A DNA stretch of 22,703 bases from Campylobacterota bacterium (GCA_034722955.1 JAYEOM010000022.1:1-22703); one strand, 5' to 3'; counted from the stretch's first letter, positions 21,429-22,703 are shown. The notes: generated from the letters alone by a model not told the origin. Program-made: numbers and translations.

Positions 21429-21671
21429 ATGATGCAACTATCAATACAAGAACCAAAGATAGAACAATTTTTTAATCACTCTAAAGATGAGATTATTAAA
21501 GCATTGAAATTTATTGTTGATAATAATATCAAAGATTTTGATGCCATTAAAAGTAATTTAGAACTTTCAATTGAGCAAAAAAAAGAATTAGATGTAAGAA
21601 TAAAATCATTTCACAATAACCCATTAATGGGGCGTTCTTGGAGTGAAATTAAGGTTAGAGTGGCCTGGTGA
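21429..21671 (+). CDS. Putative addiction-module antitoxin component
   Basis: C-terminal ELSIEQKKELDVRI...NPLMGRSWSEIK resembles the TIGR02574-type pattern (LTxxQKxELDxR...W.E.K); TATAAT and AAGGAG upstream. Confidence 0.7.
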   Translation: MMQLSIQEPKIEQFFNHSKDEIIKALKFIVDNNIKDFDAIKSNLELSIEQKKELDVRIKSFHNNPLMGRSWSEIKVRVAW

Positions 21672-21714
21672 TCGTATCTAGCTCTATGATCACGATCACC
21701 AGACCCCTTTGCCT
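21652..21714. repeat. REP-like palindrome built from two inverted AGGGGTCWGGTGAT motifs
   Basis: Perfect 11-bp stem CTGGTGATCGT (21665-21675) / ACGATCACCAG (21692-21702); reverse complement of 21695-21710 is AAAGGGGTCTGGTGAT, a 15/16 match to 22544-22559. Confidence 0.75.
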
Positions 21715-21773
21715 CCAATCTCCACTTTTATCACTCTTGATAATCATAGAAATAGCCGACTTAGACAAGCTCT

Positions 21774-22460
21774 CTACTTCAAATGTTTCTTCAACTCATC
21801 TATTGATATATTCAACTCTTTAGCTACATCTTCTACAGATAACTTGAATTTATTTATCATTGTAATAGCTGTTGTTATCATTCCTTGTGATATACCTCTC
21901 TCTTCCCCTCGCTCCAGAGCAATCTTATACCCTGGTAGCTCTTCTATCTTCATATCTCTTAGCATTCTCTCTACCTCCTCTAAGGTGTTTTGTAAGTTTC
22001 TGTTTGTTGATAGCTCTTCTAGGGCTAGCATATATTTACCTAACTTATGGTTATTATCTTTTGTCAACTCTCTCAATCTTGTGATGATGTAGGTTATAAC
22101 ATCTTTTTCATCTCTATCTTTAAAGTCACATAGTATAGCTAGTACTAGTGCATCAGGGCTATCCATAGAGAGAAACTTTTCACAGTCTATCGTATGCATA
22201 TCTACAATATTATAGCTAAATGAGAGATTTGTTTCAACTATCTTTTTTTTCATTGATAGTTTTGGTCTCCCTATGTATACTACGAATTGATGTACAGGTA
22301 GCTTATCAAATCTCTGTTTTATATCTGTATAGTATCTAAGCATTCTATGGTGCATAGTTTTATCGTTATCATTTTGTATCTCTAAGTGTAGTATAGCTTT
22401 TATACCATTTATGGTTCCTTCTAAAAAAGTGTGGGTAATCCAAAATCCGCTATAATGCAA
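21774..22460 (-). pseudogene. Rpn/YhgA-like PD-(D/E)XK protein, probably 5'-truncated
   Basis: ILHLEIQ...MHHRMLRYY...QFVVYIG and a C-terminal ERGEERG repeat; TTG start; the upstream 'D' motif region that normally precedes HLEIQ is missing. Confidence 0.6.
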
Positions 22461-22486
22461 ATATCTCTCAATGGTAGGAAAATATG

Positions 22487-22622
22487 AGGTAGAGGGAGAG
22501 GTAGAGGGGTCAGGTAGAGCAGGTAAAGGTAAAGGGGTCAGGTAAAGGGGTCAGGTGATGCCAATGCTACTATAATCTACAGAAGTAGAGGGGTCAGGTG
22601 ATGCCAATGCTACTATAATCTA
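22487..22622 (+). repeat. G-rich short repeat cluster upstream of the RAYT-like gene
   Basis: AGGGGTCAGGT at 22505, 22533, 22546 and 22589; tandem GGTAAAGGGGTCA at 22528 and 22541; 34-bp direct repeat at 22546-22579 and 22589-22622. Confidence 0.9.
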
Positions 22623-22655
22623 AACTACGCTACAATCCTCACAAAGGATTAGCCG

Positions 22656-22703
22656 ATGCCAAGAAAACCACGCATAGAGATAGCAGGTTATTACCATATC
22701 ATC
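22656..22703 (+). mobile_element. 5' end of a probable REP-associated tyrosine transposase (Y1/HUH, IS200-like superfamily); runs off the window
   Basis: RBS AAAGGA then MPRKPRIEIAGYYHII, matching the typical MPRxxR...GxYHI N-terminus; only 16 codons are visible. Confidence 0.72.

Follow-up and report, generated by a model that had tools for sequence, protein, structure and literature searches.

Organization of the locus

The window considered here is the whole of contig C22 (22,703 nucleotides (nt)) from a Campylobacterota genome assembly (GCA_034722955.1, JAYEOM010000022.1), which comprises 140 contigs amounting to 2.51 Mb at 40% G+C. At its right end the window carries the start of a gene for a RAYT-like protein of the Y1/HUH nuclease family, which is preceded by closely spaced copies of a short motif beginning with GGGG; upstream of these lie a broken Rpn-like gene, a further RAYT remnant, a degenerate hairpin and an antitoxin-like gene devoid of its toxin (Table 1). 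This region (21652-22703) had originally been predicted to be a locus for the capture of gene fragments. We present evidence that it is, with high probability, a patch of ends of a multi-copy family of TIRYT elements or 'TIRtrons' (RAYT-like genes bracketed by inverted repeats), as opposed to a capture device.

The motif, GGGGTCAG, which forms the outermost part or 'head' of the repeats, occurs four times on the + strand of the window, at 22506, 22534, 22547 and 22590, as against 0.28 expected occurrences, and none of 100 shuffled sequences reached four. All four copies extend to the 11-mer AGGGGTCAGGT, and the predicted placement of four motif copies in front of a RAYT-like start is thereby confirmed. 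The open reading frame (ORF) behind them encodes MPRKPRIEIAGYYHII in 16 codons and remains open to the last base; its 16 residues all match those that begin a C104 paralogue, and the HUH and tyrosine motifs expected of the family to which the ORF had been attributed are seen in paralogues. Related leaders are found on C63, C25, C113, C104 and C117, each within about 200 nt of a contig end, and C25 also shows a head duplication comparable to that of the window, with a period of 41. A promoter scan returned no + strand site in the leader of the window despite its exact TATAAT and AAAGGA.

What had been read as a stub consisting of a promoter, a ribosome-binding site and an ATG has no biological counterpart: the ORF runs to the last base of a complete contig, and the 'stub' is therefore a contig end and not a truncated gene. 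The contig stops inside the RAYT gene because the gene is repeated, which breaks the assembly. The last 20-127 bases of the window have no match on any other contig of the assembly by which this RAYT copy might have been extended. Elsewhere in the genome there are RAYT starts that are genuinely truncated, on C8, on C113 and at the far end of C104.

Table 1. Features at the right end of the window (aa, amino acids)
Feature	Position	Strand	Remarks
Antitoxin-like ORF, 80 aa	21429..21671	+	last ~5 native codons and toxin partner lost
Degenerate hairpin of the GGGGTC[AT]GGT repeat family	21660..21707		arms 21660-21675 and 21692-21707; typical flank GTTAGA in front
RAYT gene remnant, last ~17 codons (LSKSAISMIIKSDKSGD)	21716..21770	-	dispersed repeat in its own right
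5'-truncated Rpn-family (PD-(D/E)XK) gene	21774..22460	-	residues 52-271 of a 271-aa relative kept; homology from ~22415 downward
33-nt stretch beside the Rpn break	22413..22445		also on C139 by another broken Rpn piece, in opposite relative orientation
Stutter array	22487..22556	+	short tandem flank units (GGTAGAG / GGTAAAG) with partial or whole head; heads at 22506, 22534, 22547
43-nt tandem duplication of the left-end head	22547..22632	+	33 nt identical (22547-22579 = 22590-22622)
Left terminal inverted repeat head (GGGGTCAGGTGATGCC...) and leader	22590..22655	+	TATAAT 22614-22619, AAAGGA 22643-22648
First 16 codons of the TIRYT/RAYT gene	22656..22703	+	ATG at 22656; cut by contig end

Affinities of the RAYT-like gene

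The Pfam Y1_Tnp profile matches seven places in the genome above its cut-off (best 67.4 bits), with the C104 paralogue at 67 bits; with the NCBIfam models, this paralogue scores 73.7 bits against REP_Tyr_transpos (NF047646) versus 25.3 bits against IS200 (NF033573). In an alignment of seven sequences, comprising the intact 258-aa protein encoded on C67, two further paralogues and four relatives found in other genomes, N58-H59-Y60-H61 and the residues Y118, I119, E120, N122 and P123 of a YIE[HQ]NP motif, Y118 corresponding to the catalytic tyrosine, are invariant. An AlphaFold2 model of the C67 protein (pLDDT 77) finds its best PDB match in 4ER8_A, the Escherichia coli RAYT in complex with a REP hairpin (E 1.5e-5, TM 0.70 on the target), followed by the TnpA proteins of ISDra2 and IS608, and shows modelled helices at 217-256, close to the C-terminus. 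The corresponding gene (C67:1589-2362, L008) is the only intact full-length RAYT in the assembly and has relatives of 64-74% identity in five other genomes; it may represent a separate lineage kept by the host beside the multi-copy one.

These features can be placed against two earlier surveys, in the portions drawn on here. RAYT-like genes flanked by inverted repeats were named TIRYTs and described as lying in 'TIRtrons'; many of their inverted repeats share the consensus GGGGWSAS, and some families of these terminal inverted repeats are moderately abundant and occur in dimers or clusters (Di Nocera, De Gregorio and Rocco, 2013; PMC3733652). The TIRYTs were later equated with TnpA-REP subclass 2.1, and a table entry, '2.1 (1)', connects them to RAYT Group 1; members of this subclass possess NH[YF]H, YIELNP and a C-terminal helix-turn-helix (HTH) similar to Bac_DnaA_C, HTH_23 or HTH_28, are prevalent in epsilon-, beta- and delta-proteobacteria, and form the second largest class of RAYT-like proteins by count (Quentin et al., 2018; PMC6006769). 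The association of a RAYT subclass with GGGGWSAS, which the original prediction had invoked, is hence in print, and the motif of the window is the head of the inverted repeats of the family. Judged by its sequence, and through its paralogues, the gene at the end of the window is assigned to the TIRYT class (TnpA-REP subclass 2.1, RAYT Group 1).

Anatomy and genomic spread of the element

The anatomy of the element is apparent from a copy on C130, in which two inverted heads, identical over 22 nt and with 867 nt between them, enclose a RAYT pseudogene. Across the genome there are 85 copies of GGGGTCAG, 51 of AGGGGTCAGGT (27 forward and 24 reverse) and 87 heads of the form GGGGTC[AT]GGT; each of 40 relatives has 0-11 copies of the 11-mer, a reversed-pattern control giving 0-2. 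Heads begin the left and right ends of RAYT genes and also several families of short repeats, namely a perfect palindrome of 50 nt in 5 copies, a hairpin of 73 nt in 4 copies, and hairpins of 59-61 nt with a conserved loop in 15 copies. A strict rule recovers 25 complete hairpins of 50-81 nt, which the degenerate hairpin of the window escapes. In each family two direct subrepeats of 6-7 nt follow GGGGTC(A/T)GG (for example TGATGC/TAATGC, TAACAAC/TACAAC or TGATTTG twice), and these are candidate binding sites of the putative C-terminal HTH. As for the gene itself, tblastn detects 45 RAYT pieces; 16 begin at residue 1-4, and 12 reach a contig end.

Head and gene belong together, since in seven relatives from four genera the exact 11-mer ends 45-62 nt before a RAYT match. 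The heads are strongly concentrated at assembly breaks and outside genes: the terminal 300 nt of the contigs, which make up 3.3% of the genome, contain 44 of the 87; a head or a RAYT piece comes equally close to 49 of the 280 contig ends; and just six heads fall inside ORFs of at least 150 aa, which cover 84.5% of the genome. One hairpin on C1 is absent from the syntenic intergenic site of the relative G001, a site too diverged to fix the point of insertion. At the flanks of the hairpins and of the C130 element no direct repeat that would qualify as a target-site duplication was discernible by eye, and these flanks are often inverted (GTAAA...TTTAC). Separately, at C1:25686-25830 (L052) a 61-nt hairpin is followed by a second copy without the first 11 bases, i.e. 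a partial tandem duplication.

This distribution bears on the alternative of a domesticated, vertically inherited RAYT that serves long-lived, REPIN-like hairpin replicators in the manner of RAYT Groups 2 and 3, the fragments being old debris. Such a history would accord with the conserved relatives and degenerate repeats of the intact C67 gene, with the extragenic placement of the heads, and with the 61-nt hairpin family being common to species of the genus (at least 28 matches in G006 and at least 30 in G012). However, copies of the type seen in the window are many and young, the C22 and C63 leaders having 1-2 differences over about 72 nt by our own count from the printed sequences; the genome has 16 separate N-terminal starts; and Group 1 is the most insertion sequence (IS)-like of the RAYT groups in the part of the survey of Bertels et al. 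(2017; PMC5581495) used here. On balance, we regard a domesticated RAYT as unlikely to be the source of these fragments.

Short tandem arrays outside the heads

Outside the heads we observed short tandem arrays, which we term stutter: units of 5-8 flank bases ending in TA or AA, combined with a variable prefix of the head, are repeated 2-7 times. In the array of the window the units GGTAGAG and GGTAAAG occur with or without GGGGTCAGGT (Tandem Repeats Finder (TRF): period 13, 5.3 copies, score 73). Further arrays lie on C41, C69 and C138. Of 84 heads examined in this genome, 77 are directly preceded by A. The 6-mer composed of the last five flank bases and the initial G of the head recurs exactly within 40 nt upstream at 20 of these 84 heads, as against 0-5 of 84 random places in 20 trials. 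Likewise, a TRF array touches the outer 12 nt at 24 of the 87 heads, versus a mean of 4.2 and a maximum of 9 for random places; the random-place control is the valid one, whereas a control inside the element (26/87 heads) is unusable on account of the two 6-7-nt subrepeats that make up the repeat interior.

The stutter extends beyond this genome. Among left-end heads of relatives chosen solely for preceding a RAYT match, five of six show the recurrence, G022 being the one without it, with units that are specific to the locus or subfamily (AGTCTAG, GCTTAG, GAATAG, GAGTAAAG, GGTAAAG). It is also present at five further loci, a choice biased by their having been fetched for closely spaced heads. 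More generally, the succession of a partial head, 4-14 bases and a full head was found at 27 places in 19 of the 151 genomes of the family, spanning 9 of its 11 genera, and nowhere with the reversed control. These occurrences speak to the concern that the four-head array of the window is an artefact of assembly at a repeat-induced contig end, a concern prompted by its lying within 220 nt of that end and by half of all heads being at contig ends. With the same tandem recurring in so many genomes, and also deep inside contigs, as on G070:C1 near 1.05 Mb, an artefact is most improbable.

In the portions of the TIRYT and REPIN literature drawn on here we found no description of units as short as these that include partial heads. 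We tentatively raise the possibility, which we hold to be doubtful at present, that the stutter might be an in vivo footprint left by the TIRYT enzyme as it repeatedly cuts and rejoins DNA at the border between A and GGGG.

Gene breaks at and away from the heads

The hairpin of the window was missed by an exact motif search because its arms are degenerate copies: the arm on the - strand begins with GGGGTCTG (one mismatch) and the other with GTGGCCTG (three mismatches in eight). As single-stranded DNA (ssDNA) it yields folding energies of -12.6 and -16.6 kcal/mol (z -3.7 and -5.3), with none of 200 shuffles folding equally well, and it is separated by 799 nt from the first head. The palindrome reported about 800 nt away from the motif array is real, but its arms are not exact copies of the motif. 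The RAYT tail next to it has six other copies in this genome (blastn, 87-100% identity), of which that on C31 ends a longer reading frame for a RAYT C-terminal HTH. Together, the hairpin and the adjacent tail are the remnant right end of another TIRYT copy.

It is at this remnant that the antitoxin-like gene is broken. Its product has weak matches to Unstab_antitox and TIGR02574 (E 3.7e-4 and 3e-4, below cut-off); we recovered no relative in 150 genomes of the family at E 1e-5, and 13 relatives of 68-84% identity from metagenomes. Directly behind the antitoxin, 11 of these 13 have an ORF of about 96 aa for a ParE/RelE-like toxin, which is truncated in the other two. In the window, the homology ends near 21651, about 8 nt before the hairpin, and GTTAGA and the hairpin follow where the toxin would be expected. 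A cognate ParE-like toxin is absent elsewhere in the genome, a search for it having matched nothing but the distantly related toxins that belong to the two other pairs, on C56 and C63. The antitoxin is indeed toxin-less, as had been proposed, and its toxin was lost by a deletion whose edge lies at a repeat head. As a separate observation, C63:41860-42512 holds an intact pair of an Unstab_antitox and a ParE-like gene between a degenerate repeat end and a RAYT left end, the leader of which is nearly identical to that of the window.

Comparable breaks are seen elsewhere. The cas2 gene at C104:678-818, which covers positions 1-41 of 74 in Pfam CRISPR_Cas2, terminates precisely at a repeat head; beyond this head come a RAYT tail in reversed orientation and, after it, another RAYT copy. 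RAYT copies themselves have been cut by heads or shrunk to 9-53 codons on C8, C113, C104 and C68.

The Rpn-like gene presents a different picture. Its ORF matches TIGR01784 from position 66 to 272 of 273 (E 4.6e-9; 36.5 bits, below the cut-off of 52.1 bits) and is 86% identical to P0004 over residues 52-271, the first 51 residues being missing relative to 271-aa homologues, which bears out the 5' truncation ascribed to it. With 88 nt between the break and the closest head, and with three other copies broken at the identical codon, the truncation is not accounted for by the TIRYT element. In this Rpn subfamily, N-terminal pieces at C124:31139-31310 (which stops at a contig end), C139:5776-5970 and C9:5711-6098 all end after ...VDNTK (about residue 58) and continue differently in each case. 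Such a pattern suggests that these Rpn-like genes undergo recurrent rearrangement at a specific site, and something other than the TIRYT element seems to break them. At three of the four TIGR01784 places in the genome (C117:478-1353, C13:18386-19339 and the window) a repeat head is situated about 50-220 nt upstream of the 5' end, and on C117 and in the window the RAYT left end points away from the Rpn gene.

With regard to the wider context, positions 1-55 of the window are identical to the last 55 bases of C61, and the two contigs are probably joined by this assembly overlap. The DNA beyond the histidine kinase gene differs between the window and the closest species, G003, where the kinase is 86% identical and the next ORF is unrelated and lies on the reverse strand. 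This region is accordingly variable between species, which fits an accessory-gene hot spot. Parts of the stretch are also present in four brine-metagenome runs from one study, as contigs of only about 100-700 nt; among the matches listed, no piece spans 21663-22013 or 22361-22582, and joints in the kinase gene with sides below 30 nt were disregarded. Single metagenome contigs diverge from the window at 22462, 22487 and 22668, the last continuing into another head, and these probably derive from other copies or other organisms. The summed depth of public brine-metagenome contigs is about 10,000-60,000 over 22389-22495, versus about 20 on adjacent unique sequence; the brine community thus contains this stretch, or one related to it, in very high abundance. 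An Rfam search returned no family, only two sub-threshold chance matches.

The original prediction had combined these breaks into a domesticated HUH nuclease that maintains a single hypervariable locus and there, by cutting and rejoining DNA at the motif, shuffles or samples foreign sequences. Broken genes do adjoin heads (the toxin-less antitoxin, cas2 on C104 and RAYT stubs), the DNA downstream of the kinase does differ in G003, and the stutter arrays are suggestive of repeated cutting and rejoining. Nevertheless, the genome-wide map of dispersed heads shows that the motif is not tied to one locus; the supposed stub is a contig end; the DNA between the motif copies consists of a truncated resident accessory gene of the Rpn family and transposon remnants, and is not an ordered series of foreign pieces; the Rpn break lies away from the motif; and the locus has no spacer-like regular array. 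We consequently give a dedicated locus for sampling foreign DNA very little credence. Of the narrower claim that genes break at the motif, the half concerning the antitoxin-toxin pair holds, its break being at a motif copy, whereas the half concerning the Rpn-like gene does not. It is a fair and testable proposition that neighboring genes are damaged through cutting and rejoining by the nuclease at the motif. The simplest account is a TIRYT family with miniature derivatives that has expanded in this genome, several of whose ends have piled up in the window, with one adjacent deletion.

Relationship to known systems

The described TIRYTs offer the closest counterpart: common to both are a Y1/HUH protein of the RAYT-like kind, about 240-260 aa long and possessing NH[YF]H and a tyrosine motif YIE.NP, with a C-terminal HTH that is putative in the present family, inverted repeats that bracket the gene with a head, GGGGTCAG, fitting GGGGWSAS, an epsilon-proteobacterial host and behavior more IS-like than that of other RAYTs. 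What differs is the unusually high copy number (45 pieces, 87 heads), with many truncated copies, the presence of at least five families of short palindromic derivatives, and the short tandem stutter outside the heads.

Among related enzymes, the TnpA-REP/RAYT of E. coli with its repetitive extragenic palindromes (REP-BIME; 4ER8) is the best structural match; it too is an HUH Y1 nuclease with a single domain, associated with extragenic palindromes that are dispersed and also border its gene. However, it is single-copy, lacks the C-terminal HTH and recognizes GTAG-tagged REP hairpins, and its identity to our model in the structural alignment is 15%. Elements of the IS200/IS605 group (IS608, ISDra2) resemble the family in the HUH Y1 fold, in occurring as multiple copies and in a probable single-strand cut-and-rejoin chemistry, but they have subterminal hairpins and no inverted terminal repeats. 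With the classical REP/REPIN-RAYT systems (Groups 2 and 3) the family shares abundant extragenic palindromes that also flank the gene; in place of a single-copy gene there are 45 pieces with 16 N-terminal starts, and in place of GTAG-tagged hairpins the heads start with GGGGTC. The stutter, for its part, recalls the REPIN clusters of Pseudomonas fluorescens SBW25, where a repeat and its flank are tandemly reiterated next to a RAYT gene; in the account drawn on here, the units are whole REPINs together with flanks and measure hundreds of bases (Bertels and Rainey, 2011; PMC3116915), as opposed to the units of 7-43 nt with only a prefix of the head seen in this genome.

Several observations count against assigning these repeats to a TIRYT family. 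The copy in the window consists of 16 codons, too few to show whether it is intact or carries the HUH and tyrosine motifs. Among the profiles, the NCBIfam scores stay below their cut-offs (73.7 and 65.5 versus 80 bits for NF047646; 25.3 and 17.5 versus 55 bits for NF033573), and the C-terminal 60-100 residues match HTH_23 only at sub-threshold levels (E 0.017 and 3e-4; cut-off 24.6 bits). A phmmer search of PDB returned no relative by sequence at E up to 1. The inverted repeats of the intact C67 RAYT are degenerate, and the nearest 400 nt contain no exact head; there is therefore no demonstrably active TIRYT copy in hand. The Rpn break discussed above belongs here too. As for the literature, the portion of Quentin et al. 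(2018; PMC6006769) used above reports no REP-like sequences near subclass 2.1 genes, yet they are abundant here, and the two publications in the searched literature that use the term TIRYT report no biochemical activity for any of these proteins.

A mechanistic model and its implications

We nevertheless propose the following model for the TIRYT family. The element would be about 0.87 kb in length, comprising a gene for an HUH Y1 nuclease of about 260 aa with a putative C-terminal HTH, bracketed by inverted repeats with an outer head, GGGGTC(A/T)GGT directly behind an A, and then two 6-7-nt subrepeats. The right end of the window would accordingly represent the left repeat, the leader and the first 16 codons of one such copy. 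By analogy with E. coli TnpA-REP and the TnpA enzymes of IS608 and ISDra2, the enzyme is predicted to bind the head on ssDNA, to cut between A and GGGG and to rejoin the ends, a reaction that could move or copy the element as well as the short palindromes derived from it. Ends that are processed again and again, insertions beside older ends, and deletions from or between ends would then leave truncated host genes beside heads, the victim here probably being the toxin of a ParE-type pair, and the same processes may give rise to the short tandem stutters outside the heads.

One consequence is a caution for annotation: gene 'stubs' and broken genes at the contig ends of assemblies such as this one are mostly by-products of repeats. 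Beyond this, with its young copies, families of derivatives, head-bounded deletions and stutters, the genome is a natural test bed for whether and where TIRYT enzymes cut. If the stutter is truly their footprint, it would give the cut site from sequence alone and show this class of enzymes to be active, and it would also tie the TIRYT enzyme to the deletions that truncate neighboring genes.

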